The notes: generated from the sequence alone by a model not told the origin. 64,000 nt of DNA from an uncultured Bacteroidales bacterium (GCA_900316305.1 ONCM01000011.1:1863-65862); one strand, 5' to 3'; shown: positions 31,202 through 64,000, counted from the first letter of the stretch. A program made the numbers and translations.

Positions 31202-31212
31202 TTTTATACTTT

Positions 31213-34639: not shown

Positions 34640-34656
34640 ATACCTATATTATATAT

Positions 34657-42064: not shown

Positions 42065-42068
42065 AATA

Positions 42069-43223: not shown

Positions 43224-43306
43224 TTCAGAATTATGAATTAAGAATGATGAATGATGAATAAAGAGGATAGAGGGAGGAAGAAGTAGAAGGTAAATTATAA
43301 CAAGAA

Positions 43307-43708: not shown

Positions 43709-43851
43709 GAGAATTGGAGGATGAAAAAGCGATGAAGGGGCGATGAAAAGCGATGAAGGGGCGATGAAAGGACGATGAAAAAGCGATGAAAAGCGATGAA
43801 GGGGCGATGAAAGGACGATGAAAAAGCGATGAAAAAGCGATGAAGGACGAC
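43685..43851. repeat. GAGGATAA x3, then a decamer array GCGATGAARR x about 13 with a 40-nt super-period
   Basis: Contains the HsdR_N-like gene's stop codon and fills the convergent gap to paralogue A. Confidence 0.9.
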
Positions 43852-49222: not shown

Positions 49223-50713
49223 CTACGCCAACGACCATTCCGCCCCGTCCTTGGTGTCCTTCACCACGATGCCGGCGGCGTTGAGGTCGTCGCGAATTTT
49301 GTCCGACAACGCCCAGTTCTTTTCGGCTTTGGCGGTCTTGCGCATCTCCAACACCAACTGCATGGCCTTATCGAGGGCGTCGTGCTCGCGGGTGTCACCC
49401 TGTGCGAGTTCGGGTTTGATGCCCAAGATGTCGAAGAAGAAGGTGCGGAAGGTGGTCTTCAGCAACTCAATATCTTCAGCCGTAAGCGTGGCGTGACCGT
49501 CCTTCACAGCGTTGATGATGCGCACTGCGTCAAACAACTCGGCAATCACCTTCGGGGTGTTGAAGTCGTCGTTCATCGCCTCGTAGCAGCGTTCCTGCAG
49601 GGCTTCGATGTTCTCGGTGGAGGTGGCACCGGCCTTCAAACTGTCGAGGTGACGTTCGGCGGCATATAGTTTTTCCAGTCCCTTCTCGGCAGATTGCAGT
49701 GCGGCGTTGCTGAAATCGACCGTGCCGCGATAGGAGGCCTGCAAAACGAAATAGCGAATCGTCATCGGCGAATAGGCCTTCTCCAACTTAGGATGGCTGC
49801 CGGTGAAAAACTCGTTGAGGGTAATGAAGTTGCCGAGCGACTTGCCCATCTTCTGTCCCTCAATGGTAATCATATTGTTGTGCATCCAGTAGCGCACGGA
49901 ACTCTTGCCGTTGGCCACGGTGCTCTGACACACTTCCGACTCGTGGTGCGGGAACAGCAGGTCCATGCCGCCGCCGTGGATGTCGAACTGCTCGCCCAAA
50001 TACTTGGTGCTCATGGCCGTACATTCGATATGCCAGCCCGGGAAACCGACGCTCCAGGGGGAGTTCCAGCGCATGATGTGCTCGGGGGCGGCCTTCTTCC
50101 AGAGGGCGAAGTCGGCGGGATTGCGTTTCTCGCTCTGACCGTCCAGCTCGCGGGTGTTGGCAATCAGCTCTGCCAAAACGCGACCCGAAAGCTTGCCGTA
50201 GCCGAAGTCCTTGTCGAACTTCTCCACATCGAAATAGACGGAGCCTTCCGACACGTAGGCATAGCCCGCATCAAGAATTTTTTGCACCATCTCGATTTGC
50301 TCGATAATGTGGCCGGAAGCGCGAGGCTCAATGGAGGGTCCCTTCACATTGAGCGCATCCATGGCCTTGTGGTAGCTGTCCATGTAGTATTGCGCCACCT
50401 CCATGGGTTCCAGCTGCTCCAAACGGGCCTTCTTGGCGATCTTGTCTTCACCCTCGTCGGCATCGTGCTCCAGATGGCCCACGTCGGTGATGTTGCGCAC
50501 GTAGCGCACCTTGTAACCGATGTGCGTGAGGTAGCGGAACACCACGTCGAAGGTGACCGCAGGGCGCGCATGCCCCAGGTGCGGCTCGCCATAGACCGTC
50601 GGTCCGCAGACATAGAGGCCCACATGGTCGGGCGTGATGGGCTTGAACAGCTCTTTTCTCTTACTTAACGTATTGAATAAAAAGACTTTGCCTTTATTGT
50701 CGGTGTTTTTCAT
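49223..50713 (-). CDS. cysS: Cysteine--tRNA ligase
   Basis: HIGH-type motif PHLGHAR, KMSKS-type motif KMGKS; 496 aa. Confidence 0.95.
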
Positions 50714-50780: not shown

Positions 50781-50846
50781 ATTTCATCGTTCTTTCATCG
50801 TTCTTTCATCGTTCATTCATCGTTCATTCATCGCCCTTCATCGTCC
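50781..50846. repeat. Decamer-type array CATCGTTCWTT
   Basis: Lies between the acyl-CoA ligase stop and the cysS promoter region; abuts the stop at 50847. Confidence 0.85.
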
Positions 50847-52607
50847 CTATGCAAACAACTTCTCAATCTGATCCTCGTACTTCTTAATCAGGACATTGCG
50901 CTTTAATTTCAACGTGGGGGTGAGCTCGCCGGACTGGATGGACCATTCGTGGTTCATCAGCAAGAAGCGTTTCACCTTCTCGGTGTCGCCGAAGAACTTG
51001 TTGTATTCATCCACAATCTTCTTGTACTTTTTCTGCACCTCGGGATGCTCGATCATCTCCTCGTTGGTGGTATAAGGAATACCCTTGTTGGTGCACCAGG
51101 AGCGCAGGTCCACGAAGTTCGGTACGATGAGGGCGGCGGCGAACTGTTTGTTCTCGCCAACCACCAGGATATTGTCAATCAGGGACTCTTCCATGAATTT
51201 GTTCTCGATGATGGTGGGCACCACATACTTGCCGAACGCCGTCTTGAACATCTCTTTCTTACGACCGGTAATCTTCAGCCGGCCTTCGGGAGTGAGTTGC
51301 CCGAGGTCGCCGGTATGGAACCAACCGTCAGCATCAATCACCTCGGCGGTCTGTTCGGGATGGTTGTAGTAGCCCTTCATGACATGCGGTCCTTTGGTGA
51401 GGATCTCTCCGTCCTCTGCGATACGCACGCGCGTACCGGGCAACACCGGACCGGCCGTGCCGATCTCCATACCGCCCTCGAAGAAGTTGCACACCGCAAT
51501 CACCGGGGAGGTCTCGGTGGTGCCGTAGCCCTCCAACACGGGAATACCCATGGCCCAAAACACCTTGGAGATACGCGGCTGGATGGCCGCACCACCCGTC
51601 ACCACAACCTTCAGGTTGCCGCCGAGTGCCTTGTTCCACTGGTTCAGCACCAGCTTGCGCGCCCACTTCAGCCGACGGTCGTAACGCTTGCCGGGATTGT
51701 CGCCGTACTGCAACGCGATCTCATTGGCCCAGAAGAAAATCCGCTGTTTGGTTTTGCTCAGCTTATGTCCTTTCTGCAGAATCTTGTCATAGACTTTTTC
51801 CAAGAGTCGCGGCACCGTCGTGAAGATATCGGGTTTCAGCTCCACCATATTCTCCTGAATCTTGGCCAGGCTCTCTGCATAGTATATCGGCAGGCCGAGA
51901 TACTGCCAAGCGTAGTTCATCATGCGTTCATACACGTGACACAGAGGGAGATAACTCAGAATGCGGTTGTTTTCGGTCGTCGGGATGATCGGCAGCACCG
52001 CCTCCACATTGGAGAGGAAATTGCGGTGGCTCAGCATCACACCTTTAGGGAATCCGGTGGTACCGGACGTGTAAACTAAAGAGATAATGTCCTCGGGTTG
52101 GATGCTGTCCTTGATCTCTTTCAGGTACTGCGGCGCGGGGTTGGCGCGACCGAGTTCGATCACCTCGTTCAAGTGCTTGTAACCACGGAGGTTACGGAAT
52201 GTATAGACTTTGTCTTTCAGTTCGGGTTTGTCTTCCAAAATCTGGGTGATCTTGCGCAGCAGGTCCCAGCCGGCCACGAAAATCAGCTTCACATGGGCAT
52301 CTTCAAAGATATAGCGGTAGTCGCTCTCGCTGATGGTCGGGTAGATGGCCACGTGGAGTGCGCCGATCTGCATGATGGCCATGTCGAGGAAGTTCCACTC
52401 CGGTCGGTTGGGGGTGATGGTGGCCACACTGTCGCCCTTCTTGATGCCCAGCTGCATCAGTCCGTAGGAGAGACTGTTGACGATTTCCACGTATTGTTGG
52501 GTGCTGTATTTCACCCAGATGCCGTTCTCCTTGCAGCACAGGGCGTCTTCCTTCGGGAATTCTTTCAGATCACGTTCGAGCATGTCGAACAATCGAGTCA
52601 CTTCCAT
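50847..52607 (-). CDS. Long-chain-fatty-acid--CoA ligase (AMP-binding enzyme)
   Basis: AMP-binding signature YTSGTTGFPKGVMLSHRN; 586 aa. Confidence 0.85.
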   Translation of the reverse strand: MEVTRLFDMLERDLKEFPKEDALCCKENGIWVKYSTQQYVEIVNSLSYGLMQLGIKKGDSVATITPNRPEWNFLDMAIMQIGALHVAIYPTISESDYRYIFEDAHVKLIFVAGWDLLRKITQILEDKPELKDKVYTFRNLRGYKHLNEVIELGRANPAPQYLKEIKDSIQPEDIISLVYTSGTTGFPKGVMLSHRNFLSNVEAVLPIIPTTENNRILSYLPLCHVYERMMNYAWQYLGLPIYYAESLAKIQENMVELKPDIFTTVPRLLEKVYDKILQKGHKLSKTKQRIFFWANEIALQYGDNPGKRYDRRLKWARKLVLNQWNKALGGNLKVVVTGGAAIQPRISKVFWAMGIPVLEGYGTTETSPVIAVCNFFEGGMEIGTAGPVLPGTRVRIAEDGEILTKGPHVMKGYYNHPEQTAEVIDADGWFHTGDLGQLTPEGRLKITGRKKEMFKTAFGKYVVPTIIENKFMEESLIDNILVVGENKQFAAALIVPNFVDLRSWCTNKGIPYTTNEEMIEHPEVQKKYKKIVDEYNKFFGDTEKVKRFLLMNHEWSIQSGELTPTLKLKRNVLIKKYEDQIEKLFA

Positions 52608-52685
52608 AATCCTATTTTAGAATGAGGCGGCAAAGATACATAAAATGTGAATACATCGAATAGGCGTCCATCATCGTTAATCGGA

Positions 52686-52846
52686 TGGAGAAGGTGAACG
52701 TCCAGTTAGCAGTGAGCAGTGAGTAGTTAGCAGTTGGGCGGGAACCGTCATTGTTCTCTCCGTTAGGGGATGCATGGCAATAGCCAGGAACAGGACGGTG
52801 CGCGGGGGAAATCCATGGAAAGAGATTCTTCGGATGGTAATCGTCT
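52686..52846 (-). repeat. Terminal (truncated) cassette leader plus the first 12 nt of an Rhs core end
   Basis: Minus strand: ...CTGGCTATTGCCATGCATCCCCTAACGGAGA...CCAACTGCTAACTACTCACTGCTCACTGCTAACTGGACGTTCACCTTCTCC, then unrelated sequence. Confidence 0.7.
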
Positions 52847-53371
52847 TTAACGACCATATGTGATTTTGTTCTTCTTGTTCGTATAGAGTTTTGGATATAT
52901 GGCGTGAATTCTTTGGAAAGCCTTCTTGCGGTTGCCGAATCGTTTGTCATATTCGTATACCTTCACCCAAAGTCCTCCTGAATAATCAACGTAATAAACA
53001 GTCTTTTCGTTATTAAATGTCGTTATGTTTATGAGAACATTTCCGCTCATCAAAACTTCTTTCCACATGATGGATTTGAATTCATACGTCTTTTTTTTGG
53101 GGGGTCCTTCATACCATTCGGTATATGCCATTGTGATATATAAAGTTGCCGTATCCGGAAGCGTTTGCAATTCCTCATAAATAAGATCGTCTATTTTGAA
53201 ATGGCTTCTGAAATAGGGGAACGACAATGTGTCTCCAGGACGTGTCACACACGTGAAACCGATTGATTCAGGAAGTGTTCCGTCAACGACTACTATCGCA
53301 GGGACAATTTTTTGAGCCAACATCAAGTTGGACAGCACTAACAAAACGAAAAACAAAAATGTCTTTTTCAT
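52847..53371 (-). CDS. Putative immunity protein of cassette 1 (exported)
   Basis: Starts 9 nt after the stop of the toxin ORF. Signal peptide MKKTFLFFVLLVLSNLMLAQ. Function assigned by position only. Confidence 0.45.
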   Translation of the reverse strand: MKKTFLFFVLLVLSNLMLAQKIVPAIVVVDGTLPESIGFTCVTRPGDTLSFPYFRSHFKIDDLIYEELQTLPDTATLYITMAYTEWYEGPPKKKTYEFKSIMWKEVLMSGNVLINITTFNNEKTVYYVDYSGGLWVKVYEYDKRFGNRKKAFQRIHAIYPKLYTNKKNKITYGR

Positions 53372-53380
53372 ATTATCAAA

Positions 53381-54469
53381 TCAAAATCCGATTTTGATCT
53401 TTTTTAAATTATCAATGAGGATGCCCCCAATCATATTGCTGTTCGAATCATATACAACAGCCGTTCCCAATCTTTTTTCATACTTCACCCCTGTGGTGAA
53501 ATTGGGGATAGATTCATAACTATTTCCAACAATAACATTATAGGCATATTTTGAGAAAACGGATTTGTCCTTTTCAGATAATCTGTATGGTGTCTGAACA
53601 CAAGTCCCTGTACCATCAGGGCAACTGAAAGAATGTAATTTATGGGAGTGTATGGATAAATATCCTTTAGGATCGATTTCAATCTCTCCATCAGGAGTAC
53701 CAGTAGGATAAGTTTTGGGTAGTCCGCCAGAAAATGATGTGGCTTCTTCCCTGTCCCCACCATTGATGACCGTCCTATCATATACAGATATTATTGCTTC
53801 TATTTCAATAATATCCGTCTTCCAATCAACTGTCACCGCTGAACGGCTTGTCACCCTTTGTGCCTCATTATTTTTTGTTATGATATTGATACTTTCCTCA
53901 TCGGAAACAAAATAAACAGAAATGTCCTCTTTACCGTCTGTGCCCAAGAAATTTCCATTCCAATCTAAATACTGTCCTATCTCCTCCCCATTCGGATCCA
54001 CGCACCTCACCGGGTTGTTCGCGCAATAAACATACGGACTCAAAGAAGGATATTTGTCACTCATCGGGTCCACGCTCAACCAGACGCTGAGGTCGCTGCT
54101 GTAATACCGTGAGCCAAAGTAAGATAGACCCGTTTCGGAGTCCTTTTCTTTTGCGGAGAAGGTGAAAGTTCCGTCACGGTGTGGGTGTTGTCCGGGATTC
54201 CGCCACACGGTTGCGGTGTGCCGTGGCCGGGACTGGCCGGGGGTGTGGCGGAATGGCGGTGGGGTTGCCGGAGCGGATCCCTTGCCGGACAAGGCCTTGA
54301 AAGAACGGTTTTGCCGGTCCGCGGCGGGGGCCAAAGCCCGGAGGGAGGGCATCCCCCGTGACCACGCTGTCCTGGTTGGGACAACAGCCTGGCTGCCCGA
54401 AGCGTTTGCGGGCGCGGGCGAAATCCCCGAACGGGGATTCATCGCATGGTATGATTGGCGGCGGTTCAT
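53381..54469 (-). CDS. Cassette 1: Rhs core-end plus variable C-terminal toxin domain, fused in frame to a GC-rich Pro/Arg-rich leader with its own ATG
   Basis: FTFSAKEKDSETGLSYFGSRYYSSDLSVWLSVDPMSDKYPSLSPYVYCANNPVRCVDPNGEE is an RHS repeat-associated core end, followed by a unique about 215-aa tail. The conserved leader ATG at 54469 is in frame. Confidence 0.6.
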   Translation of the reverse strand: MNRRQSYHAMNPRSGISPAPANASGSQAVVPTRTAWSRGMPSLRALAPAADRQNRSFKALSGKGSAPATPPPFRHTPGQSRPRHTATVWRNPGQHPHRDGTFTFSAKEKDSETGLSYFGSRYYSSDLSVWLSVDPMSDKYPSLSPYVYCANNPVRCVDPNGEEIGQYLDWNGNFLGTDGKEDISVYFVSDEESINIITKNNEAQRVTSRSAVTVDWKTDIIEIEAIISVYDRTVINGGDREEATSFSGGLPKTYPTGTPDGEIEIDPKGYLSIHSHKLHSFSCPDGTGTCVQTPYRLSEKDKSVFSKYAYNVIVGNSYESIPNFTTGVKYEKRLGTAVVYDSNSNMIGGILIDNLKKIKIGF

Positions 54470-54510
54470 CGGCGGTTTTTTGACGGGGCGAAGATACGAT
54501 TTCTGAGAGT
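54167..54510 (-). repeat. GC-rich leader of cassette 1
   Basis: TATCTTCG box, ATGAACCGCCGCC, hairpin AATCCCCGTTCGGGGATT (54422-54439), and a 12-bp inverted repeat ATTCCGCCACAC/GTGTGGCGGAAT (54197-54208 / 54243-54254). Confidence 0.8.
54489..54496 (-). promoter_or_regulatory. Variant -7-like box TATCTTCG at the 5' end of the cassette-1 leader
   Basis: TCGTATCTTCGCCCCGTCAAAAA, 19 nt upstream of the leader ATG at 54469. The same string recurs at 59215 and 62977. Confidence 0.35.
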
Positions 54511-54559
54511 GATTATTTGTTCGGGATTTTGAATACAATTATAAAGGAAGACGATCCGG

Positions 54560-54784
54560 TCAAAAATGTCTGACATAAATAATAGCAGCCACCCACAATG
54601 CGCCTATGGCATAAAACCATAAATCACTAAGAATTTGAGACCAGCTTTGCTTCCCCATTCCTAAAAAATCATTATAATGGTGGACCAGCGTAAAAAACAA
54701 CAATGATGCAATAAACACTCCAATAAAAAAACATATTTTTTTTGTTTTTATTCTGCGAAGGCTGTTATTTTTTCTTTTTTCCAT
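54560..54784 (-). CDS. Putative immunity protein of cassette 2 (74 aa, two TM helices)
   Basis: Overlaps the toxin ORF end by 20 nt; has two hydrophobic helices. Assigned by position only. Confidence 0.4.
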   Translation of the reverse strand: MEKRKNNSLRRIKTKKICFFIGVFIASLLFFTLVHHYNDFLGMGKQSWSQILSDLWFYAIGALWVAAIIYVRHF

Positions 54785-55805
54785 TTTTCCATTTGTTTTT
54801 TGTTGTCATGAACCAAGAACGAATATTTAAGGCATAACCAACATCTTCAATAATGTCAGCCGCTTTCCTGACTACAGGTCCACCTGCTTCCTCAAATAGT
54901 TTAAGTGTTTTCCCAACCCCAAGTGTTGCCAAGTCTATTATTGCCCATTCTTTGTCTGATTTAGATGCTTTGTCTCCAAACATATTCTCTCCCTTGCCCA
55001 ATATCATGATATCATTTATTTGTGAAGTGATTGGCAATGCCGTGACCAAACCCTGACCAATAGCCACACCCTTTTGTGCTGCTTTCCTGTCAAAATCATC
55101 CAATTTCTCACGTCTTGTTCTCGGATCAAGGATAATTGGGGATTTAACCACTCCATCAGAAGATTGTCCAATCATAGGGATTGACGCGTCATCTTCCACA
55201 TATTGAGGTTTTGTATAACTGACATATTCTCGTTTGTTGTCAATGGAAAATTTCCCAGAAAACTTATCCCTTCTTGAATTCCTTTTGATAATTCCGCCAG
55301 TATGATGCTCTTTTCGGTATCGTCTTGCCTCCGCACGAGTGTCAAATTCACCATTGGGATCCACCATAATTATTGGGTTATTCCTGCAATAAGCGTATGG
55401 AGAAGTTGAGGCATATTTCGCTGCCATCGGGTCCACGCTCAGCCAGATGCTTAGGTCGGAGGAGTAATACCGTGAGCCAAAGTAACTTAAACCAGTTTCC
55501 AAGTCCTTTTCTTTTGCGGAGAAGGTGAAAGACAATGATGAATGATAAATGATGAATGATGAATAGTGACTGGGAGCATGCTGGCGGTTTTGTTGGAAAT
55601 TCCGCCACACGGTTGTGGTCGGCCGTGGCCGGGGATGGTTGGGAGTGTGGCGGAATGGTGGTGGGTAGGCAGTGAGTTGCGACCGTTCGCGCGCGCAGGC
55701 CGTAGGTCTGCAGGGCTTGGTGGCGGGGAAAAGGCACAACCGGTGGCGCGCGCCGGAGGTGTGCGGGCACGTGGAGAACAGGCGATATGTTCGGGTGACG
55801 GACAT
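54765..55805 (-). CDS. Cassette 2: leader plus Rhs core-end plus variable toxin domain
   Basis: The ATG at 55805 is in frame with FTFSAKEKDLETGLSYFGSRYYSSDLSIWLSVDPMAAKYASTSPYAYCRNNPIIMVDPNGE, followed by a unique basic tail. Confidence 0.6.
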   Translation of the reverse strand: MSVTRTYRLFSTCPHTSGARHRLCLFPATKPCRPTACARERSQLTAYPPPFRHTPNHPRPRPTTTVWRNFQQNRQHAPSHYSSFIIYHSSLSFTFSAKEKDLETGLSYFGSRYYSSDLSIWLSVDPMAAKYASTSPYAYCRNNPIIMVDPNGEFDTRAEARRYRKEHHTGGIIKRNSRRDKFSGKFSIDNKREYVSYTKPQYVEDDASIPMIGQSSDGVVKSPIILDPRTRREKLDDFDRKAAQKGVAIGQGLVTALPITSQINDIMILGKGENMFGDKASKSDKEWAIIDLATLGVGKTLKLFEEAGGPVVRKAADIIEDVGYALNIRSWFMTTKNKWKNGKKKK

Positions 55806-55837
55806 CAGATTTTGACAGGGTGGATGAATGAGATATC
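55530..55837 (-). repeat. GC-rich leader of cassette 2
   Basis: ATG at 55805. The same 12-bp inverted repeat ATTCCGCCACAC/GTGTGGCGGAAT (55599-55610 / 55645-55656). A CATTCAT heptamer array lies directly before FTFS. Confidence 0.8.
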
Positions 55838-56476
55838 TTATTTTATTATAGGATTTTCCATGACAGAATATGGATACCTATCAGACCATTTTAAAGCGAT
55901 AAAATTTCCACCATGATAAGCATAGACCGCTAAAAAAGGATCTATGTGAAGAAAGTATTCTATACCATCACAATAATACATTCCATCAATATAACGAGCT
56001 TCCTTGCCATCAATCGTCAATGTAAGATGTGGCAATAGAGTGTCCTCCCGAGATTTGATAACCGATAAATGTGCCATCCACGAGAGATCGTCGGGAAGTT
56101 GTTCCGTTTTGTTCGTTTTTTTCAAGAAAAGTCCATACGATTCACCAAATATATAACAGTCCCTTTTATTATAATACAAGTGACCCGTTAAAGGATTATC
56201 CGTGTATATGCCACCATAATTACAACATAATTCAGGAAGAAAAGTCTTTGGAGCATAACCGATATATGTAAAAGTCGTATCGTTTCTTTGAACGAAATTT
56301 ATCAGGAATATATAATCTTCTTTGGAATCTGAAATGTTAGAGGAAAGTATTTGTTTGAAACACTTGTTTTTAACACGAAGTTGTTGTAGTTTAACCTTGT
56401 TTTGTGAATCTACTTGCGCATCACAAATCAAAGGAATCAACAATAACAACAAATAGAATTTATATAACTTTTTCAT
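55838..56476 (-). CDS. Putative immunity protein of cassette 3 (exported)
   Basis: Signal peptide MKKLYKFYLLLLLIPLICDAQ. Starts 8 nt after the toxin stop if ATG 56476 is used. Confidence 0.45.
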   Translation of the reverse strand: MKKLYKFYLLLLLIPLICDAQVDSQNKVKLQQLRVKNKCFKQILSSNISDSKEDYIFLINFVQRNDTTFTYIGYAPKTFLPELCCNYGGIYTDNPLTGHLYYNKRDCYIFGESYGLFLKKTNKTEQLPDDLSWMAHLSVIKSREDTLLPHLTLTIDGKEARYIDGMYYCDGIEYFLHIDPFLAVYAYHGGNFIALKWSDRYPYSVMENPIIK

Positions 56477-56484
56477 TGATACAA

Positions 56485-57444
56485 TCATTTGAACCAAAGG
56501 CGATGAGTTGCTTGAAACAGATTGATTGACTTTTGAATATTCTTGGATATTTCATATCTGTAGTTTTGTTGGTCATCCGTCGAAACGTAACGGTGACGAA
56601 AAGCTTCATAGACTTTATATGTATTGGGATTATTTATCATCATAGGAATATCACAAGTTGGGCAAGGTTTACCATCCGGACCTCTGTAACTTAATTTATG
56701 TCTATAACTCCAATGACTGTGAATTTGGTATTTGACATTTTCGGGAGAACGGACTTGGTTGAAAACATCCTGATGAGATGTTCCAACAATGGTTTCTGTT
56801 TCACCAATATTCAATGCCCATTCAACATCAGTGTTTTCCGCTGCAAATTCGAAGAAATCGGTGGCAACGTTAGCATCATCAAATGACATGATATGTGTAA
56901 TGAAATCTATTTTTTTGCTAGGGTCATTTTTGTCTAGTATCAACTCTCCAGGATAGTTGTCAGAATTATGATTGATTGAACCCGCTTTATAATACCGACT
57001 AATTTCTTTCCCATTTTTATCTGTTGCATATACAATATCCACATCTGTTCTACCATTATCTCTTTTAGTCAAAGTTCCATCTCGTGCCAGATCCCACTCA
57101 TCCTCCCCATTCGGATCAACCACTTTTATAGGGTTATTGCTGCAATAAACATAGTTAGATTGATTTGGATATTTCCCCGCCATCGGGTCCACACTCAGCC
57201 ACACACTCAAATCGCTGTTGTAATACCGTGAGCCGAAGTAAGATAAGCCGGTTTCGGAGTCCTTTTCTTTGGCGGAGAAGGTGAAAGTCAGAGAGTTAGC
57301 AGTTAGCAGTGAGTAGTTAGCAGTTGGACGGAGGGAGGCAGAATAGTGTATCTCTGCGTATCGCGCATGTAGGCACGTATTTGTCCGCAGACAATCTGCG
57401 GAATTCTGCGGGATCAGTGGGCTATATGTGGAGGCGGCGGGCAT
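56485..57444 (-). CDS. Cassette 3: leader plus Rhs core-end plus variable toxin domain (contains an IHSH motif)
   Basis: The ATG at 57444 is in frame with LTFTFSAKEKDSETGLSYFGSRYYNSDLSVWLSVDPMAGKYPNQSNYVYCSNNPIKVVDPNGED, followed by a unique tail. Confidence 0.6.
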   Translation of the reverse strand: MPAASTYSPLIPQNSADCLRTNTCLHARYAEIHYSASLRPTANYSLLTANSLTFTFSAKEKDSETGLSYFGSRYYNSDLSVWLSVDPMAGKYPNQSNYVYCSNNPIKVVDPNGEDEWDLARDGTLTKRDNGRTDVDIVYATDKNGKEISRYYKAGSINHNSDNYPGELILDKNDPSKKIDFITHIMSFDDANVATDFFEFAAENTDVEWALNIGETETIVGTSHQDVFNQVRSPENVKYQIHSHWSYRHKLSYRGPDGKPCPTCDIPMMINNPNTYKVYEAFRHRYVSTDDQQNYRYEISKNIQKSINLFQATHRLWFK

Positions 57445-57475
57445 AGGATTTTGATGGGGCGATGAGAAGTTTTTA
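57286..57475 (-). repeat. GC-rich leader of cassette 3
   Basis: ATGCCCGCCGCC start. GCTAACT heptamers lie directly before FTFS. Confidence 0.75.
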
Positions 57476-57531
57476 TTAATTTGACGTTCACAATTCGGGG
57501 AATGTTCACAATTGGTATTGTTTCTCTATCA

Positions 57532-58113
57532 TTATTTTGTAGTATAAAAACGATCACATTTGATGATTTTGTTCGCTTTGTGTTTATTAATAGGTTTGTT
57601 GATTCGAATCGCAGAAGAAATGCAATCGTTTAACGCTGCTGTGTCTCTTTCGGATGCTTGAGCATATCCTACATATAAATGTTCAAATCCTCTATTGCTT
57701 ACTCCATATATATGATTTGGTTTTTCCAAGTTATAAAACAAATAATATCTCCAAAAAGTACTACCGTATCTTCCACTTTCATATAAAACACCTTCTATGG
57801 GTATATCAATTCTTTCTCCCATTTGTAAAAGGCACTGGGTTCTCAGAAGAAAGTTGTACAAAGTGTCCTGTGATTTATACGGGTATTCTTCACTAATGTA
57901 AAATACAGCGTCATGATAGGAGAACGTATAAGCATCGGAATGTCCACTTATAATGGTTTCAATTGTACTATTGAGTGGCAATTTCACCATATATGCAGGA
58001 GAGTCTTCCAATGGTTTGTATAAAAAAACTTTACAAAAATGCTTTTCTATTTTAAATGCACAACTTGCTGTTATCAGACACACTATGGAAAGCATAAGTT
58101 TACTTTTTTTCAT
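57532..58113 (-). CDS. Putative immunity lipoprotein of cassette 4
   Basis: Lipobox LITASC. Overlaps the toxin ORF end by 14 nt. Confidence 0.45.
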   Translation of the reverse strand: MKKSKLMLSIVCLITASCAFKIEKHFCKVFLYKPLEDSPAYMVKLPLNSTIETIISGHSDAYTFSYHDAVFYISEEYPYKSQDTLYNFLLRTQCLLQMGERIDIPIEGVLYESGRYGSTFWRYYLFYNLEKPNHIYGVSNRGFEHLYVGYAQASERDTAALNDCISSAIRINKPINKHKANKIIKCDRFYTTK

Positions 58114-59197
58114 AAGATTCTATATTAAAGGGCAAAAATGGACCTGTTTTATCATCGTTCAATAAGGAAGGACCTGTTCCTCCCAAATATTGCCCATCCT
58201 TACTCCATTTGACAATATAATGCGTTCTATATCCAAAGCCCAATTCTTTGCGTACAAGGTTTTCTCTATAACAAGCGACCCATTCATTTTTTTCGATTTT
58301 TTCATCAGATGTGCAATCTCTCCCAACTAAAGTGAAATCTCTCCAATTGTTATTGTCATCAAATGCATGGGATAGTTCATGCGCTAAATCGCAGGTGCCA
58401 TTATATTCTCCTAATGGATTTCCTTGTACAGGTAATCTTGTCCCATTTGGAGCCCATGTTATAGTGTTTTGTTCTTTTTTCTCATACCAACTTGTACCAG
58501 CTTTAATCGTATATTGAGTTCCTGAATTTTGTAAATCAGAAATCATACGATTCCCCTCCGTTGTCTTATTTATTTTGTCCAACGAATATTTAGCTTTATT
58601 AACAAAACGATTCTGTTGGCGCTCATTGAGAACAGCACCTTTTATGTGAGTTAAAGTACCATCTTTTTCATATCTATATTGAGAGCCTCGCCATTCAATT
58701 ACTATCTCTTCCCCATTCGGATCCACCAGTTTCACTGGGTTATCCGCGCAATAAACATACGGCGACAGCGACGCATATTTGTCACTCATCGGATCCACGC
58801 TCAACCAAATGGAGAGGTCGCTGCTGTAATACCGTGAGCCAAAGTAAGATAGACCGGTTTCGGAGTCCTTTTCTTTTGCGGAGAAGGTGAAAATCCAGTT
58901 AGCAGTCAGCAGTGAGTAGTTAGCAGTTGGGCGGAGAACAGTGGGATGCGTGGCAGTGATTCGGAGCGGCAGGCTTTCCCCGGTAGGGGATGAAGCGCGG
59001 TAGGACGGGGACACACCGCAGTCACCATGTCCCGCAGGGACAGAAGCTCGGTAGGAACCGGAAGCGGCGCGGGGTTTCCCAAGCCCCTTCAGGGGCGAGA
59101 CATGGCTCCGCGGATCGCGCGGATCACACGGATTTCCGCGAAGAGGGTCTGCGGGGAACGGCGGGAGCGGCGGGCGATATGTTCGGTGGCGGTTCAT
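58100..59197 (-). CDS. Cassette 4: leader plus Rhs core-end plus HExxH metallopeptidase-like toxin domain
   Basis: The ATG at 59197 (MNRHRTYRPP...) is in frame with FTFSAKEKDSETGLSYFGSRYYSSDLSIWLSVDPMSDKYASLSPYVYCADNPVKLVDPNGEE. The tail contains AHELSHAFD. Confidence 0.6.
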   Translation of the reverse strand: MNRHRTYRPPLPPFPADPLRGNPCDPRDPRSHVSPLKGLGKPRAASGSYRASVPAGHGDCGVSPSYRASSPTGESLPLRITATHPTVLRPTANYSLLTANWIFTFSAKEKDSETGLSYFGSRYYSSDLSIWLSVDPMSDKYASLSPYVYCADNPVKLVDPNGEEIVIEWRGSQYRYEKDGTLTHIKGAVLNERQQNRFVNKAKYSLDKINKTTEGNRMISDLQNSGTQYTIKAGTSWYEKKEQNTITWAPNGTRLPVQGNPLGEYNGTCDLAHELSHAFDDNNNWRDFTLVGRDCTSDEKIEKNEWVACYRENLVRKELGFGYRTHYIVKWSKDGQYLGGTGPSLLNDDKTGPFLPFNIESYEKK

Positions 59198-59230
59198 AGG
59201 CGTTTTTGACGGGGCGAAGATACGAAAAAA
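58892..59230 (-). repeat. GC-rich leader of cassette 4
   Basis: TATCTTCG box, ATGAACCGCCACC, block CGGAAATCCGTGTGATCCGCGCGATCCGCGGAG, hairpins GCCCCTGAAGGGGC and TCCCCTACCGGGGA, and GCTAACT heptamers. Confidence 0.8.
59215..59222 (-). promoter_or_regulatory. Variant -7-like box TATCTTCG at the 5' end of the cassette-4 leader
   Basis: 17 nt upstream of the leader ATG at 59197. Confidence 0.35.
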
Positions 59231-59317
59231 TTGGGGTTATATGAGTTGATGTGTTGTCCGAAATTCAGGGAAGATTATAATCCTTTGATAATAAAGATTA
59301 GTATCGCTACAGGAAAA

Positions 59318-59974
59318 TCACCATGCAATAGTCCAACAATATACACGATTCGTTGTGTTCTTGTCAAATGCGACTCCGCTATTATAACCATGTTTTATCC
59401 GGTCAGGCAATAAATCCCAGTTATATTCATAATCCTGAGGCAGAATAAAACCGTCTCCAAATTTCATCACACAAAAAACGATTGAATCTTGAGAAAACCG
59501 AGAATGTTTAGGGCCGTTTGAAAGAAAATCACAAATGTGCTTGAAATTGGGAATAAGATGCCCGCAGTCAGGTACGTTCTCAAAAAGTCTCTCCAACATG
59601 ATGGTGTCGTATTCAGATCTCAGCGATCGTTCATTGCTAAACGAGACAAACAAGCTGTCATTTTGGTTGACAACATATGTCGCAGATCGTAAGCATTGAT
59701 TTTGGAATCTTTGCATTTGATCGGAATCTTTGCATTGATACACCTTCCATCGGTACAATAGCTCAAATTCATCTGTAAAATAAGGGTATTGGCGATCAAC
59801 AACATTCCCTCCCATTCCAATCAATGTGAAATGTTTTATAGTATCAAATTCGTGAAAAACACTATCAGGAATAACGTAATCATTTTGAAAAAACGCACTT
59901 TTATGAATGTTTTGACACGATGCAAGACAAAAGACAAAATTCATTATTTGCAACATTAATACATATTTTCGCAT
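59318..59974 (-). CDS. Putative immunity lipoprotein of cassette 5
   Basis: MRKYVLMLQIMNFVFCLASC lipobox. The ATG at 59974 lies 4 nt after the toxin stop; the upstream part of the 316-aa track ORF is read-through of the toxin region in another frame. Confidence 0.45.
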   Translation of the reverse strand: MRKYVLMLQIMNFVFCLASCQNIHKSAFFQNDYVIPDSVFHEFDTIKHFTLIGMGGNVVDRQYPYFTDEFELLYRWKVYQCKDSDQMQRFQNQCLRSATYVVNQNDSLFVSFSNERSLRSEYDTIMLERLFENVPDCGHLIPNFKHICDFLSNGPKHSRFSQDSIVFCVMKFGDGFILPQDYEYNWDLLPDRIKHGYNSGVAFDKNTTNRVYCWTIAW

Positions 59975-59978
59975 AATC

Positions 59979-60746
59979 TTAAAACATTTTGGAAATAACT
60001 TTGAGAACTTCAACGAATACATCAGTGACTGATTGTTGTTTCGAAGACTTAGAGTAATCATACATGCGTCGCTCGGTCGCTGAGTTGATATGAGTGGCTG
60101 AAAAAAAATGAATATCGTCTTTGACGTTTTTTCGTGACAAGACAGTATATCTGCTTGACGAGTTTTTTTTAGCATATGTCCAAGAAAAGATTTTAACAGC
60201 ATATTCTGATGTTTCAGTATGCGAAAAAGAATTTGGCCCCATAGCATCAGGGAAAGATTGTGTAACACTTCTTACTTCAACATCTTGAACCAACGGTCTT
60301 TTTTCATAACCCATATTATTCATAAATGCTTCGGCATTATCACCCGTAAATGTTGCGTTCGCTATTCCATCAACACCATCTTGTCGGCATGATACATCAC
60401 TTACCTTATCCAAATTAGAATTAATGGCATCATTGTCGGATTTGTCGAACATATTATTACTACCCATCCATTTCCACCCTTTTCCCTCCAATGATTTTTC
60501 ATCTCCTTTTCGGTAATCTCGATTGTAATATACATCCCCCGTCAACTCATTTTCAAACCAGTCCTCCCCATTCGGATCCACCAGTTTCACTGGGTTATCC
60601 GCGCAATAAACATACGGGCTCAGCGAGGCATATTTGTCACTCATTGGATCCACGCTCAACCAAATACTCAAATCGCTGCTGTAATAGCGTGAGCCAAAGT
60701 AAGATAGACCGGTTTCGGAGTCCTTTTCTTTTGCGGAGAAGGTGAA
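59979..60746 (-). pseudogene. Cassette 5: Rhs core-end plus variable toxin domain, out of frame with its leader ATG (no usable ATG)
   Basis: FTFSAKEKDSETGLSYFGSRYYSSDLSIWLSVDPMSDKYASLSPYVYCADNPVKLVDPNGED plus a unique tail. The leader ATG at 60831 is in a different frame; the only in-frame start is a TTG inside the core end. Confidence 0.5.
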
Positions 60747-60858
60747 AATAGCCCGGAACGGTGGCGGGTTCGTCCCAAATCCCCGGAAGGGGATTCATCG
60801 GTCTCTGGCGATATGGGCGGTGGCGGGGCATTGGTGATTATATAATAGTGCAAAAGTA
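60747..60858 (-). repeat. Short leader of cassette 5
   Basis: TACTTTTG box, ATGCCCCGCCACC, hairpin AATCCCCTTCCGGGGATT (60778-60795), and CCGTTCCGGGCTAT. Confidence 0.75.
60851..60858 (-). promoter_or_regulatory. -7 box TACTTTTG at the 5' end of the cassette-5 leader
   Basis: 19 nt upstream of the leader ATG at 60831. Back to back with the + strand box at 60904-60911. Confidence 0.4.
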
Positions 60859-60903
60859 CAAAAATATCATATACAAAATCAATGCAACTTCAAGATTTTT
60901 TTA

Positions 60904-60911
60904 TACTTTTG
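60904..60911 (+). promoter_or_regulatory. -7 box TACTTTTG for the + strand gene pair inside the array
   Basis: 16 nt upstream of the ATG at 60928. Confidence 0.45.
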
Positions 60912-60927
60912 CAAAAATATTTGACTT

Positions 60928-61266
60928 ATGCAGATTCTTCGACAGAAAATCACAAGAGAGCATCTCAAAACATTGGCAGCCAACACATTCGTTGATATGA
61001 TCAAATGTGTCGCCGATGTTAAACAAAATCTGTTGGCTGTTGATGCTGAACTACATGCCGACCTTGAATCCATGTTGCTTGAAAATGGTTCTGAACAGGG
61101 TTGTCTTTGGGGATTTAACCTCTATCCTGACGAAACTGGCGATGATTTCATCGAATTCGATTCTCTTATCAACATCCGCTCTTGGCAAGGGAACCGCAGC
61201 AGAGACGTTGAAGACGAAAGTGTGCGTCAGCAAATCAGAGAAATTGTTTCCAAATACATTGAATAA
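60928..61266 (+). CDS. Small conserved hypothetical protein (DUF5674-like by recollection)
   Basis: 112 aa. Perfect TACTTTTG box 16 nt upstream. Opposite strand to the whole array. Confidence 0.45.
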   Translation: MQILRQKITREHLKTLAANTFVDMIKCVADVKQNLLAVDAELHADLESMLLENGSEQGCLWGFNLYPDETGDDFIEFDSLINIRSWQGNRSRDVEDESVRQQIREIVSKYIE

Positions 61267-61268
61267 CC

Positions 61269-61595
61269 ATGCAGCACGAAACCCTCAGCAACGGCGCTTG
61301 GGCCGATATGACGTTGGCCCAGCAAATGGCAAACATTGGAAGTGAAAGTTACCGTGCCACAAAATGGCTTGCTAAAGGCCGCAGTGACAACGCCGAACGT
61401 GCTTTTGAGCGTATGCAAGAGCTGGTGGACCTCACTATCGCTTACGGTCGACGCAATTCCCCAAATCGATATTCTCTTCTGAAAGAAATCTGTCGCTTCA
61501 GGGAACTTTTCTGCAAGGCATTCCTCGATTCCAATCTGACCGAACTTTCTGCACTCAACCATTATCTCGATCATTTTGCTAAGATCAGGGCATAG
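61269..61595 (+). CDS. Small helical hypothetical protein, translationally coupled to the preceding gene
   Basis: 108 aa. Starts 2 nt after the upstream stop. Confidence 0.4.
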   Translation: MQHETLSNGAWADMTLAQQMANIGSESYRATKWLAKGRSDNAERAFERMQELVDLTIAYGRRNSPNRYSLLKEICRFRELFCKAFLDSNLTELSALNHYLDHFAKIRA

Positions 61596-61800
61596 AGTTA
61601 CACAGATCTCATGCATTTGGATGCATAGCAATAGCCCGGGACGTTTGCGGGTTCGTTCCAAATCCCCGTGAGGGAATTCATGAATCTCCGCGTGTCACAC
61701 GTATCCACACGTATTAGGGCTGCGGAAATCTGCGAGGTCTGTGATATTTGATGGTGGCGGGCATAGCGGATTTTTGAGGGGGCAATGATGTGAAATTAAA
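61596..61800 (-). repeat. Leader copy not followed by an Rhs core end (precedes the inverted two-gene insert)
   Basis: ATGCCCGCCACC at 61764, hairpin AATTCCCTCACGGGGATT (61661-78), and CCCGGGCTATTGCTATGCATCC. Confidence 0.7.
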
Positions 61801-61810
61801 TAATACAATA

Positions 61811-62377
61811 TTATTCTAATCCTGTGAAATATTCTCGAGCAGTATAAAAGGCTTTTTTAGACTCCTTTTCCATGAAAACAAAGTGCCATCTTGCTGTTGG
61901 CTGAAGAAAAAACGTGGATTTCACCCCATTGTATGTTATTTCTACTTCACAACTCTCACTTTCGAATTCTCTCTTTTCGAAAACACAATACTCCGACCAA
62001 TTCCTGCTATTATAGATGCTTTTTATTCTGTTTTTAGAATAATAGACAACATAAAAGTCTTCAACCATCACCCCACTAATGCCTGCGAGTTGTATTTTGT
62101 CATCCATATTGTACACATGACGATCTAACAGAAGTTTATCCCCAACTTTTATAGATAACGTATCGTTCTCATTTATTCCAAAAATTGTAAGCACTGCATG
62201 TCTCTTTTTATACGGTTTGGCAAAATCCCAGATCTCATCAGTGGTTTGCCAATGCCTTGTTACATGCTTCGATGGGCTGGCGTAATTTATTGAATCTTGA
62301 CCTAAGGCAGTTAACGCATATATGGTTGACATAAATATGAATACAAGTGATTTAATCTGATTATTTGTCTTGCTCAT
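61811..62377 (-). CDS. Putative immunity protein of cassette 6 (exported)
   Basis: Signal peptide ...MSTIYALTALGQ. Starts 9 nt after the toxin stop. Confidence 0.45.
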   Translation of the reverse strand: MSKTNNQIKSLVFIFMSTIYALTALGQDSINYASPSKHVTRHWQTTDEIWDFAKPYKKRHAVLTIFGINENDTLSIKVGDKLLLDRHVYNMDDKIQLAGISGVMVEDFYVVYYSKNRIKSIYNSRNWSEYCVFEKREFESESCEVEITYNGVKSTFFLQPTARWHFVFMEKESKKAFYTAREYFTGLE

Positions 62378-62386
62378 AGCGATTTG

Positions 62387-62749
62387 TCAATGATGGTTGT
62401 GTCGATAGTTTTCAAAATAATGCTTCAAAATTTCATCTCTCATCCTCTCCATTTTTCTTTTACTGAACGGATGAGAGGATTTATTCACGATCTTTGCGGT
62501 AAAGTTAATGGTGATAATTTTATTCCCATTCTCATCGATTGTTATGACTATTTCTATCTCCTCCCCATCCGGATCCACCAACTTCACCGGGTTGTCTGCG
62601 CAATAAACGTAAGGCGAAAGCGAAGGATATTTCCCCGCCATCGGGTCGACGCTCAACCAAATGCTCAAATCGCTGCTGTAATAGCGTGAGCCAAAGTAAC
62701 TTAAGCCGGTTTCAACATCCTTCTCTTTTGCGGAGAACGTGTAAGACAA
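62387..62749 (-). CDS. Cassette 6: Rhs core-end plus short toxin tail, out of frame with its leader ATG (only a TTG start)
   Basis: (L)SYTFSAKEKDVETGLSYFGSRYYSSDLSIWLSVDPMAGKYPSLSPYVYCADNPVKLVDPDGEE plus a 55-aa tail. The leader ATG at 62958 is in another frame. Confidence 0.45.
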   Translation of the reverse strand: MSYTFSAKEKDVETGLSYFGSRYYSSDLSIWLSVDPMAGKYPSLSPYVYCADNPVKLVDPDGEEIEIVITIDENGNKIITINFTAKIVNKSSHPFSKRKMERMRDEILKHYFENYRHNHH

Positions 62750-62990
62750 ATGTAGAATGAAGAATGTAGAATGGCGGCGGGATACCCTTCCCCGTTAGGG
62801 GATGCATATCTGTAGCCCGGAACGGTTGCGCACGCGGGCCAAATCCCCGTGAGGGGATTCATGGATCTCCGCGGATCGCGCGAATCGCACGGATTTCCGA
62901 GAAGAGAATCTGCGGGGATATGCGCGGTCTGCGGGCGATATGTGAGGTGGCGGTTCATCGGTGGTTTTTGACGGAGCGAAGATACGAAAA
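62750..62990 (-). repeat. GC-rich leader of cassette 6
   Basis: TATCTTCG box, ATGAACCGCCACC, CGGAAATCCGTGCGATTCGCGCGATCCGCGGAG, hairpins AATCCCCTCACGGGGATT (62842-59) and TCCCCTAACGGGGA (62789-802), and TTCTACA/TTCTTCA heptamers. Confidence 0.8.
62977..62984 (-). promoter_or_regulatory. Variant -7-like box TATCTTCG at the 5' end of the cassette-6 leader
   Basis: 18 nt upstream of the leader ATG at 62958 and 7 nt after the stop of the YwqK-like gene. Confidence 0.35.
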
Positions 62991-63863
62991 TCACGAATCG
63001 GTTTTGGTACATTTCGTACCTCTGGCCTGTTTCATTCTCCATTTTCTTATGAAGCTATATGTACTCCAACCAAGAGCTTTCCGTTCGCCACGTTTCTGGT
63101 TTTTGAAAATCCGCCCCTTGGTGTCATAATAGACGGCGTTTGTCAGTTTGCCCGCCTGATAATAACGGATGCATTGGAGACCGTTGTAATGCTTTTTCGT
63201 ATAGAAGTCATATATAGTGTCTTTTACGCCATTTGTATATTTCGTTGTTGTCTCTAACATCCTTCGATGGTTGTAGAAGTTCTCTTTGTACAAGGTATTG
63301 TTTTTGTAGTATTGGACCAAACTGTCGGCCCAACAATAGGCGGAGTCTATTAGGGTGTCGTATTTCGCATAATACTTCCAAATGGGCTGGTTAAAGCCCA
63401 CGTAGGAAGTGTCATACTCGATTTTGTCCGAGAGATACCGGTCCGGATAGTTCAGATCCTCATCGCCATTCACGTAGAGGAGTCGTGTTAACAGTTCTCC
63501 ACCTGCGGAATAGCTTCTGACAACCCCGTCCGCAACACCTTGTTTGTAAGAGACCTCTCCACGCAACCGGCCGTCAGGCCAGTACTCTTTTGAAACGCCA
63601 TCTTCCAAACCTTCTTTGTAGCTGATGGTTTGAATGAGTTTACCCGTCTTGAAGTTGTAGCTGGTGTCTGATAGCTTATGCCCCATCTCATACACCGTCT
63701 TTTTCACCAGAACAGTATCGTTATCAACCTTCATGGAGATTACGAACCAGTTCCCGTGCGGCAATCCGCCCACAAGTTGGTTGTGCGCGTCATACAGACC
63801 GGTCACAGTTTGCCCAAACAACAAGGTTGGAAAGACCCCCAAAAGCAACAATAGTTTCTTCAT
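62991..63863 (-). CDS. YwqK-like (MORN-variant repeat) immunity/antitoxin family protein, exported
   Basis: Signal peptide MKKLLLLLGVFPTLLFGQ. Repeats of the G..DG....Y...G.L type (EGLEDGVSKEYWPDGRLRGEVSYKQGVADGVVRSYSAGGEL). Confidence 0.55.
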   Translation of the reverse strand: MKKLLLLLGVFPTLLFGQTVTGLYDAHNQLVGGLPHGNWFVISMKVDNDTVLVKKTVYEMGHKLSDTSYNFKTGKLIQTISYKEGLEDGVSKEYWPDGRLRGEVSYKQGVADGVVRSYSAGGELLTRLLYVNGDEDLNYPDRYLSDKIEYDTSYVGFNQPIWKYYAKYDTLIDSAYCWADSLVQYYKNNTLYKENFYNHRRMLETTTKYTNGVKDTIYDFYTKKHYNGLQCIRYYQAGKLTNAVYYDTKGRIFKNQKRGERKALGWSTYSFIRKWRMKQARGTKCTKTDS

Positions 63864-63889
63864 ATTCTGTCTGCTTTTCTCCAATCGAT

Positions 63890-64000
63890 TCATCTCTTGC
63901 GAACAATTTTTTTGCGAGAACGACAATTAGAAATCCTCAACTCAGGTCTTATAACCAATCTTCTTGATCGCATTGTTACAGAAAAACTCCAATTATCTTG
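63890..64000 (-). CDS. Possible 3' end of a further toxin ORF (cassette 7) running off the window
   Basis: The open frame from the window edge reads QDNWSFSVTMRSRRLVIRPELRISNCRSRKKIVRKR* and stops 27 nt upstream of the YwqK-like gene's ATG. The position is analogous to the other toxin ends. Confidence 0.3.
   Translation of the reverse strand, partial: QDNWSFSVTMRSRRLVIRPELRISNCRSRKKIVRKR

Follow-up and report, generated by a model that had tools for sequence, protein, structure and literature searches.

The stretch of DNA analysed here (the window) comprises 64,000 nucleotides (nt) from an uncultured Bacteroidales bacterium (GCA_900316305.1 ONCM01000011.1:1863-65862). Most of the window is housekeeping chromosome. 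From position 52,686 to the edge at 64,000 it contains the subject of this study, an array of short Rhs toxin fragments, each followed by a small gene. The array is built around a 188-nt direct repeat on the minus strand, which occurs six times (53982, 55345, 57101, 58707, 60562 and 62559) with a spacing of 1.4-2.0 kb and 77-93% identity between copies. Each copy matches the profile TIGR03696 (Rhs_assc_core) from position 16 or 17 to position 75 of 76, with E values of about 1e-16. All six cores are cut at one shared point, F-T-F-S-A-K-E-K-D, and these displaced toxin ends, or orphans, retain the last ~60 codons of the Rhs core. Within the core, conservation is highest over the first 26-40 nt. 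Beyond the DPNGE motif each copy continues into a different AT-rich tail with a guanine plus cytosine (GC) content of 33-39%; the tails are mutually unrelated. The cores have a GC content of 45-51%, and the leader sequences in front of them reach 52-66%. In all modules the small gene starts between 20 nt before and 9 nt after the toxin stop, and every small gene in the array is paired with a toxin open reading frame (ORF). The small genes have a GC content of 32-38% in six of seven cases and of 45% in the seventh, I0. An earlier note, made from the sequence of the window alone, had described modules with GC-rich leaders, the end of an RHS core, unique AT-rich tails and closely abutting small genes, and the profile matches, GC values and coordinates confirm that description.

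We number the toxins T0 to T6 and the small genes I0 to I6 from the window edge inwards; all elements are on the minus strand unless stated otherwise. Contigs and loci used for comparison carry L numbers. The seventh toxin, T0, is cut by the window edge and only its 3' end is seen (63890-64000); its counterpart in contig L001 (7728/7881-10004) aligns to the window with 99.9% identity. The start of I0 (62991-63893; 300 amino acids (aa), MORN repeats, signal-like N-terminus), the presumed T0 immunity gene, overlaps the T0 stop by 4 nt. Leader 1 (62747-62984) has a promoter-like box, TATCTTCG, at 62984-62977, an ATG at 62958, a GC-rich tract and a tract of the heptamer CATTCTA at 62749-62773; it is out of frame with its core in this strain. 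The core tail that follows (62559-62746) belongs to a remnant of T1 (62387-62746), in which ~400 nt of the toxin tail are missing; L007 and L009 have the fuller form, a metallopeptidase-like version of 393 aa. Beside this dead toxin gene I1 (61811-62377; 188 aa, signal-like N-terminus) is intact. The next element is a truncated leader (61620-61800) with a degenerate box, an ATG and a hairpin motif, which stops at 61620 without a core; its counterpart in L007 runs on into a Toxin-JAB1 cassette.

Two genes on the plus strand (60928-61595) interrupt the array, which is hence not one-directional throughout, as had been stated. They encode a DUF5674 protein (60928-61266; Pfam E = 2e-48) and a protein of 108 aa (61269-61595) for which Pfam gave no family match at relaxed thresholds. 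Beside the pair lies a 27-nt inverted repeat (60842-60920) with two divergent TAnnTTTG boxes. The DUF5674 module keeps its flanking leaders, leader 2 included, in L009, L012, L050 and L051, and judging from these contigs it behaves like a non-toxin cassette. Leader 2 (60750-60868; box TACTTTTG and an ATG) is out of frame here, the result of a deletion of ~80 nt that is absent from L001. It precedes T2 (59979-60749), which consists of a core tail (60562-60749) and a toxin tail without family match, and I2 (59318-59974; 218 aa) with a lipobox-like N-terminus (LASC).

The remaining four leaders are in frame with their cores. Leader 3 and T3 form an ORF of 365 aa (58100-59220; box 59220-59213, ATG 59197, heptamers 58896-58928) with a Peptidase_M91 tail, the end of which overlaps by 14 nt with I3 (57532-58113; 193 aa, lipobox-like N-terminus, TASC). 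Leader 4 and T4 form an ORF of 319 aa (56485-57465; degenerate box, ATG 57444, heptamers 57294-57325) with a Toxin-JAB1 tail, followed by I4 (55838-56476; 212 aa, signal- or lipoprotein-like N-terminus). The ORF of leader 5 and T5 (54765-55830; 346 aa, ATG 55805, CATCATT tract 55534-55564) ends in a glycine-rich tail without family match and overlaps by 20 nt with I5 (54560-54784; 74 aa), which has two hydrophobic, transmembrane-like stretches. Leader 6 and T6 (53381-54494; box 54494-54487, ATG 54469, 66% GC, without heptamers) carry a tail without family or PDB match, and I6 (52847-53371; 174 aa, signal-like N-terminus) completes the final cassette. The array ends in a terminal stump (52687-52846) made of the 3' part of a leader, heptamers at 52703-52735 and the first 12 nt of a core (TTCACCTTCTCC), after which unrelated DNA begins. 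The chromosomal flank consists of an AMP-binding acyl-CoA ligase-like gene (50847-52607, minus strand; Pfam AMP-binding) followed by CysS (49223-50713), and it is kept in conspecific contigs. The earlier count of six full modules plus a seventh cut by the edge holds for the six core copies and for T0, but module 1 (62387-62746) is a remnant with a tail deletion and an out-of-frame leader, and the truncated leader and the terminal stump had been overlooked.

The gene from which such an array is displaced lies just outside the window. L001, which is identical to the window to 99.88% over 64000-60747 and to 100% over 60749-53075, contains an rhs gene encoding 3,102 aa with matches to SpvB, FG-GAP, TcdB_toxin_midN and RHS_repeat; the homologous main gene in L007 adds matches to DUF6443 and TEN_YD-shell. 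The rhs gene in L001 ends 3.1 kb past the window edge, runs in the same direction as the array and is followed by a 246-aa gene, presumably its immunity gene, and then by T0. In this contig T0 is called with 707 aa (758 aa when the ORF is read from an upstream ATG), and it begins like a leader, continues in frame into ~500 aa of YD shell and ends with a core and a toxin tail. Because a near-identical contig has a full-length, co-oriented rhs gene directly upstream, the window holds, on this comparison, an ordinary array of orphans located downstream of the main gene in a chromosomal rhs polymorphic-toxin locus of an uncultured Bacteroidales, with seven displaced pairs of toxin tail and immunity gene. 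The window sequence gave no match in plasmid and phage collections. The earlier note had rightly stated that no YD shell is present in the window; this is merely because the window ends before the rhs gene, which lies ~3 kb further on. The note had also held that these are not the displaced tips of a normal rhs gene, had suggested to look for a full-length gene beyond 64 kb, and had named such a gene directly upstream as evidence against its own view. That gene is the one found in L001, and the view has to be given up.

Next to the cores, the leaders are the most regular part of the cassettes. Bayley and colleagues are said to have described, in 2000, TAnnTTTG as the consensus of the -7 promoter element of Bacteroidetes. 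A box of the form TAnnTT(T/C)G, which we take to be a match to this element, was found in 39 of 60 unique leaders, and in 30 of these 39 it ends 17-19 nt before the ATG (background 2%). In 40 of 43 unique leaders an open frame runs from the ATG into the core (binomial P about 3e-16), over a range of leader lengths from 63 to 336 nt, and the in-frame length variants differ by multiples of 3. Sites that vary between related leaders show no preference for any of the three codon positions. Since the frame of the ATG is kept while the differences fall equally on all codon positions, the leader frame is under selection and the sequence of the leader peptide is unconstrained. The same design occurs in loci from distant metagenome-assembled genomes (MAGs), in which the Rhs proteins are merely 30-55% identical and the leaders are AT-rich.

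The earlier note had named leaders made of decayed rhs sequence among the findings that would count against it. They are not decayed rhs, as the leaders have no blastn match in rhs gene bodies and only marginal ones by tblastx. A role as attC-like or riboswitch-like RNA was dropped as well: leaders 3 and 6 fold no better than shuffled sequences (z = -0.86 and -1.65), and a search of Rfam in E-value mode with positions 52000-64000 gave chance-level matches only. The leaders contain short 5-bp stems only, and no inverted repeats flank the cassettes. A scan for sigma-70 promoters and terminators showed no enrichment, with a promoter model that is not that of Bacteroidetes. Leaders are also found fused at other Rhs positions, namely in T0 and, at 7529, in L002.

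Together, these data suggest that the window carries a displaced orphan array of an rhs locus in which the leaders make the cassettes self-expressed, so that the cell keeps both the immunity functions and a reservoir of toxins. We give this reading a probability of roughly two in three. The leader would make each cassette its own unit of transcription and translation, and ribosomes that have translated the toxin fragment would continue into the immunity gene, which overlaps or abuts it. All immunity proteins would thus stay expressed, and cells would be immune to siblings or conspecifics that use the main gene to deploy the respective toxin. Without a shell, a toxin fragment could not be delivered; it would probably do no harm in the cytoplasm, as the exported look of the immunity proteins suggests targets in the envelope. 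The array would double as a reservoir for toxin switching, and where a second, opposed array is present, recombination between the opposed cores of the two arrays would cause an inversion and switch the toxin without loss of a cassette.

Several observations weigh against this reading. The promoter is called from sequence only, on the strength of the TAnnTTTG consensus and of the conserved spacing; many boxes in this species read TATCTTCG, which is one base away from the consensus, and leaders 4 and 5 have degenerate boxes only. Matches to named families above threshold are found for only two of the seven tails and one of the seven small genes, and toxicity, immunity and export are all predicted. 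The inversion model compares separate metagenome contigs (the window, L047 and L048), not both states in one sample or molecule; neither L047 nor L048 carries integrase, cassettes and flank on one contig, and metagenome contigs can be chimeric at repeats. In addition, a tyrosine integrase that is conserved in loci of this type, described below, has no role in the proposed explanation.

The leaders bear directly on the view that the array is a decaying graveyard, i.e. that the orphans are silent leftovers of toxin replacement, with junk leaders, kept by chance and hitch-hiking. Such decay is visible in the deletion in T1, in the two leaders that are out of frame in this strain and in the length of T6, which varies between strains; the full-length rhs gene directly upstream would also be expected. 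However, junk leaders would not keep an ATG in frame in 40 of 43 cases, nor the spacing between box and ATG across lineages as distant as those above. Furthermore, the immunity genes are intact. Look-ups of the exact proteins in a public collection, with hits counted as index blocks, gave 45 blocks for I0 (22 contigs carrying I0 were read), 76 for I1, the neighbour of the deleted T1, and 129 for I6; such exact copies in many independent assemblies make it improbable that the array is a mere graveyard.

The heptamer tracts between the ATG and the core raise the question of phase variation. In this scenario slippage of the heptamer would toggle the orphan and, by polarity, its immunity gene. A 7-nt unit inside an ORF is suited to this, and there is one fitting example: leader 1 is off by one heptamer unit, and in L005 this leader has one additional CATTCTA, which restores the frame, and is otherwise identical to that of the window, L001 and L006. 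Period-7 tracts with other units are also present in leaders of distant lineages. On the other hand, this is the only example of slippage found, and the cassette downstream of it differs in L005; the frame is lost in only 3 of 43 leaders, in one of them by the 80-nt deletion and not by slippage; and in-frame length variants differ by multiples of 3. The tracts are, moreover, imperfect, as they need to be for an open frame, because a perfect CTAACTG repeat would put a stop codon in every frame.

The heptamers are also not specific to the array. They are found in four of six leaders and in the terminal stump, and are missing from leaders 2 and 6; the earlier note, which had seen a heptamer microsatellite in each module, was correct for the majority of modules only. 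The other 52.6 kb of the window contain ~20 further period-7 arrays with many different units, located between long ORFs (among them 395-466, 3803-3847, 5477-5539, 7987-8033, 10155-10225, 13579-13690, 14610-14669, 22093-22192, 31212-31331, 35511-35548, 39078-39110, 41933-42065 and 43228-43259), and some of these units (CATTCTA, CTAACTG) are shared with the leader tracts. This rules out the heptamer as an Rhs-specific signal; the tracts reflect a genome-wide property, and there is only a small chance that they act as a switch. Intergenic TAACTGA repeats have been described in Beggiatoaceae, cyanobacteria and a few Bacteroidetes (PMC4679880); they are a parallel to the period-7 arrays of the window and not an explanation of them. 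A second kind of repeat, 6 to 11 copies of a 10-11-nt unit around GATGAAAAA (complement TTTCATCG), lies between genes at 2301-2402, 34656-34750, 43720-43846 and 50782-50844, the last of these between CysS and the AMP-ligase gene. These could be protein-binding arrays.

What the cassettes encode was judged from family matches and from the N-termini of the small proteins. In addition to the M91 and JAB1 tails, peptidase-like signals came from the metallopeptidase-like version of T1 and from a weak TseH-like match. With relaxed Pfam thresholds nothing was found for the tails of T0, T5 and T6, and only sub-threshold, chance-level matches for T2; a sequence search of PDB with T6 gave no match. Among the small genes I0 has a named family above threshold, MORN_2, in line with the earlier assignment of one gene as YwqK/MORN-like. 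By eye, without a predictor, the N-terminus of each of the seven small proteins is hydrophobic and resembles a signal, a lipobox or a transmembrane segment, and here too we agree with the earlier note. The exported appearance of the small proteins and the families of the tails support its proposal of toxin/immunity pairs acting at the envelope: the array probably consists of Rhs-tip toxin/immunity cassettes with probable targets in the cell envelope.

These features also bear on a role inside the producing cell. The Rhs core tail carries a self-cleavage motif, and the orphans are kept as translatable ORFs with that core tail; fragments driven by the leaders might act on the growth of the producer in a manner resembling toxin-antitoxin systems. 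A precedent exists in Salmonella, where Rhs tails are expressed from an internal promoter, P2, inside the rhs core, with a CTG start, and act in the cytoplasm in a toxin-antitoxin-like way (PMC7043789). As in Salmonella, orphan and main tails with their immunity genes are here predicted to be expressed independently of the shell, with promoter and start codon located directly in front of the tail. Unlike in Salmonella, the predicted promoter and the ATG are part of a distinct leader in front of the core, and by inspection each of the seven small proteins seems to be exported, anchored by lipid or embedded in the membrane. The identifiable tails (M91, JAB, metallopeptidase and the weak TseH-like one) point to the periplasm or envelope, beyond the reach of a cytoplasmic fragment. 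An internal role of this kind is therefore very improbable.

Next we consider how cassettes move. Comparison with related strains, which the earlier note had recommended, shows that cassette order and content differ among contigs that are 96-99% identical to parts of the window; an identical array in all relatives, which the note had listed among observations that would count against it, is not what we see. All contigs that were read past I6 have T6-I6 as the cassette closest to the AMP-ligase flank (I6 is followed by the AMP-ligase gene in nine of the nine listed places where the contig continues), and what precedes T6-I6 varies. One tail, accompanied by its 231-aa immunity gene, is attached to the main gene in L007 and occurs as an orphan in L004 and L009; between these copies the core has 80-90% identity over the first ~60 nt and 100% identity thereafter, with the switch placed 60-90 nt inside the core. 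In other pairs the switch in identity occurs exactly at the start of the core, in one pair ~90-120 nt inside it, and further comparisons break at the core/tail boundary. The fact that the crossover points vary within a shared core segment argues for homologous recombination, and these alignments show that recombination within the core transfers tails between the main gene and orphan sites.

The wider locus was examined by two routes, a search with the N-terminal region of Rhs and an independent search with the integrase. Both led to a shared layout of an opposed orphan array, a tyrosine integrase of 374 aa, a regulator, a DUF8202 protein, the rhs gene and its downstream array. The genes between integrase and DUF8202 often encode a membrane regulator, which has LytTR and MarR domains, and a small lipoprotein; the DUF8202 protein has ~520-540 aa and, in most loci checked, a sorting domain of the type IX secretion system (T9SS). 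The far end of the opposed array is flanked by housekeeping genes in L068 and L070. In every locus checked (L016, L017, L023, L024, L032, L033, L047, L051, L053-L055, L068, L069 and L070, with four look-ups anchored on the integrase) an orthologous integrase, 57-99% identical, lies between the opposed array and the regulator/DUF8202/rhs block, and every homologue checked with at least 57% identity has such an rhs context. Judged by MAG and sample names most of these loci come from ruminants and other herbivores; the habitat from which the window stems is probably the ruminant gut. In the literature searched, the coverage of which is incomplete, we found no description of a layout with opposed array, integrase, DUF8202 and rhs.

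In one related MAG genes for a HerA-like helicase and SIR2_2 (L029 168-3183) adjoin the rhs locus, a pair resembling a known anti-phage defence pairing. The locus integrase also has many homologues with 41-46% identity. In the prophages with a 47%-identical integrase a reverse transcriptase gene (RVT_1) is located near tail-region genes (L066 13544-14482 and L067 4892-5830); it is unrelated to the array and may belong to a diversity-generating retroelement.

The constant presence of this integrase raises the possibility of a recombinase-driven cassette system similar to an integron, a shufflon or a cluster of acquired interbacterial defence genes associated with a recombinase (rAID-1), in which the 374-aa enzyme would capture, excise or invert cassettes at the leader/core junction. 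An orthologous enzyme at the same place in every locus checked would be expected from it. The cut in the core is at one position in nearly all orphans, and the breakpoints of several rearrangements among conspecifics lie no more than ~4 nt from the leader/core boundary. At least three toxin tails have occupied the slot next to the integrase in one species: Ta (L047), a T0-like tail (L005) and T6 (L048). A fourth may be present in L063, which departs from L005 after the core. Finally, two leaders in L051 meet head to head exactly at the boundary, without a core. This last junction is a single case, however, and several crossovers lie inside the core. The best-conserved first 26-40 nt of the core would cluster homologous recombination near the boundary too, and leaders are fused elsewhere in T0 and L002. 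The array of the window is headed by rhs; the cassettes have promoter-like boxes and toxin ORFs, and are neither promoterless nor immunity-only; and the leaders show no attC-like folding and no Rfam match. In conspecific contigs the integrase is divergent from its array, in contrast to the co-directional layout of rAID-1 (10.1101/471110; PMC12247911), and the three homologues with 44-47% identity whose context was checked are all prophage integrases. On balance we regard recombinase-driven cassette exchange as decidedly unlikely.

The region around the integrase yielded further observations. In L047, L005, L016, L017, L033 and L053 the integrase-adjacent cassette has a distinct, short, AT-rich leader of 21 codons (MNQxFTYS...FAEI; L047 2333-2395, L005 735-797). 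A leader of the MNQxFTYS type is present in L014 (12791-12853) as well, with no integrase seen in that locus. Both leader types keep T-Y (ACATAT) at codons 6-7. In three lineages the motifs TGGCGCA(G/A) and CGCAAAA recur between integrase and array (L047 2104-2333; L016 near 3400-3700; L017 4392-4488); they could be candidate binding sites. The sequence CCTTCTC-CGCAAAA-GAAAAGG, which looks like a pair of inverted arms in the junction, was set aside as a recombinase core site: about half of the cores read GCC instead of GCA, and the breakpoints of L051 and of the stump are outside the spacer. The junction in L051 (1850-2100), a conspecific contig, joins a T2-type leader head-on to the reverse complement of the integrase-proximal leader, with the sequence ctaactggacgTTCaatgtccgc at the point where both leaders would otherwise enter a core; it may reflect a circle junction, an inverted insertion or a chimeric assembly. 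A metagenome scan with the leader_a1 pattern returned one relevant contig only, L063, which has a normal junction.

The order of cassettes beside the integrase is informative about inversion. In L047, which is 98.7% identical to the window, the integrase is followed by Ta-Ia, T5-I5 and T6-I6; in L005 it is followed by the T0-like toxin and a MORN gene. L048 has 98.2% identity to the window over 54173-47771 (6.4 kb); in this contig the integrase-proximal intergenic region with its short leader runs straight into T6-I6 and the AMP-ligase flank. The simplest account of the differences between L047, L005, L048 and the window would be an inversion between opposed cores. A variant of this account gives the enzyme a part: with two opposed arrays flanking integrase, regulator, DUF8202 and rhs, a domesticated phage-type integrase would invert or reinsert segments at the leader/core junction while immunity is kept on. 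We consider such integrase-assisted switching tentative and on the whole unlikely.

The preferred reading, a self-expressed orphan array, places the locus closest to a known type. The rhs arrays of enterobacteria (PMC3150448; for Salmonella PMC3967940) also consist of a full-length rhs gene followed by co-directional displaced tails; the tails keep part of the core and have an immunity gene each, they exchange with the main gene through core homology, and immunity outlasts the decay of the toxin. Homologous recombination is the established model for these orphans (PMC3967940). By the sequence features tested, the array has what defines an rhs main-plus-orphan locus, with cognate neutralisation by the small genes being putative. 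It differs from the enterobacterial loci in that the orphans share, almost without exception, a single cut position in the core and have a dedicated non-rhs leader with promoter-like box and in-frame ATG, in that an SpvB/TcdB-type main gene stands beside a DUF8202 protein, mostly with a T9SS sorting domain, and not beside a type VI secretion system, and in that related loci add an opposed second array and a conserved integrase. What is new compared with the enterobacterial model is thus the promoter-and-ATG leader at a uniform core position, the opposed array, the phage-derived integrase, the DUF8202 partner and the SpvB/TcdB type of the Rhs protein.

The comparison with the other two classes, both of which the earlier note had invoked, is less favourable. 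The definition of a rAID-1 cluster asks for a XerD-like recombinase at the 5' end, orphan immunity genes in the same direction and a GC content of at most 41% (10.1101/471110; PMC12247911). The present locus shares with it the occurrence in Bacteroidales, low-GC cassette genes (33-39%), a conserved sequence repeated between cassettes, immunity genes in arrays and a tyrosine recombinase. With respect to the 41% limit the array is mixed, as the tails and six of the seven small genes are below it and I0, the cores and the leaders above it. In contrast to rAID-1, the array is headed by rhs, without a 5' recombinase, each immunity gene is accompanied by a toxin ORF, and the integrase is divergent from the neighbouring array (seen in L047, L053, L068 and L070). 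The recombinase criterion for rAID-1 is at least 44% identity to BF9343_RS08045; it is layout and content, not this identity, that set the locus apart. The earlier note had also suggested to search nearby for a XerD-like recombinase, and a tyrosine integrase does belong to this type of locus, but it is positioned upstream of rhs, diverges from the second array and does not head the array of the window. With integrons and shufflons the locus has in common an integrase divergent from an array of short cassettes, a most variable slot next to the integrase and opposed repeats that could permit inversion. It differs from them by the lack of attC-like folded sites, by promoter-like boxes and an ATG in the cassettes themselves, by crossovers inside the 188-nt segment and by the absence of any sign that the integrase acts on cassettes, and the label of an integron-like layout does not apply.

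Orphan toxin arrays are usually seen as silent stores. The sequence constraint described here argues that each spare cassette is a working expression unit, and standing immunity to toxins that relatives can deploy would be a concrete reason for the persistence of such an array. The conserved layout offers a tractable case for studying how a single delivery gene is re-armed, in Bacteroidales of the ruminant and herbivore gut, where interbacterial weapons have been little studied. If the integrase does assist in switching, one delivery gene would be re-armed without the loss of any cassette, while all immunity genes would stay on by virtue of their leaders.

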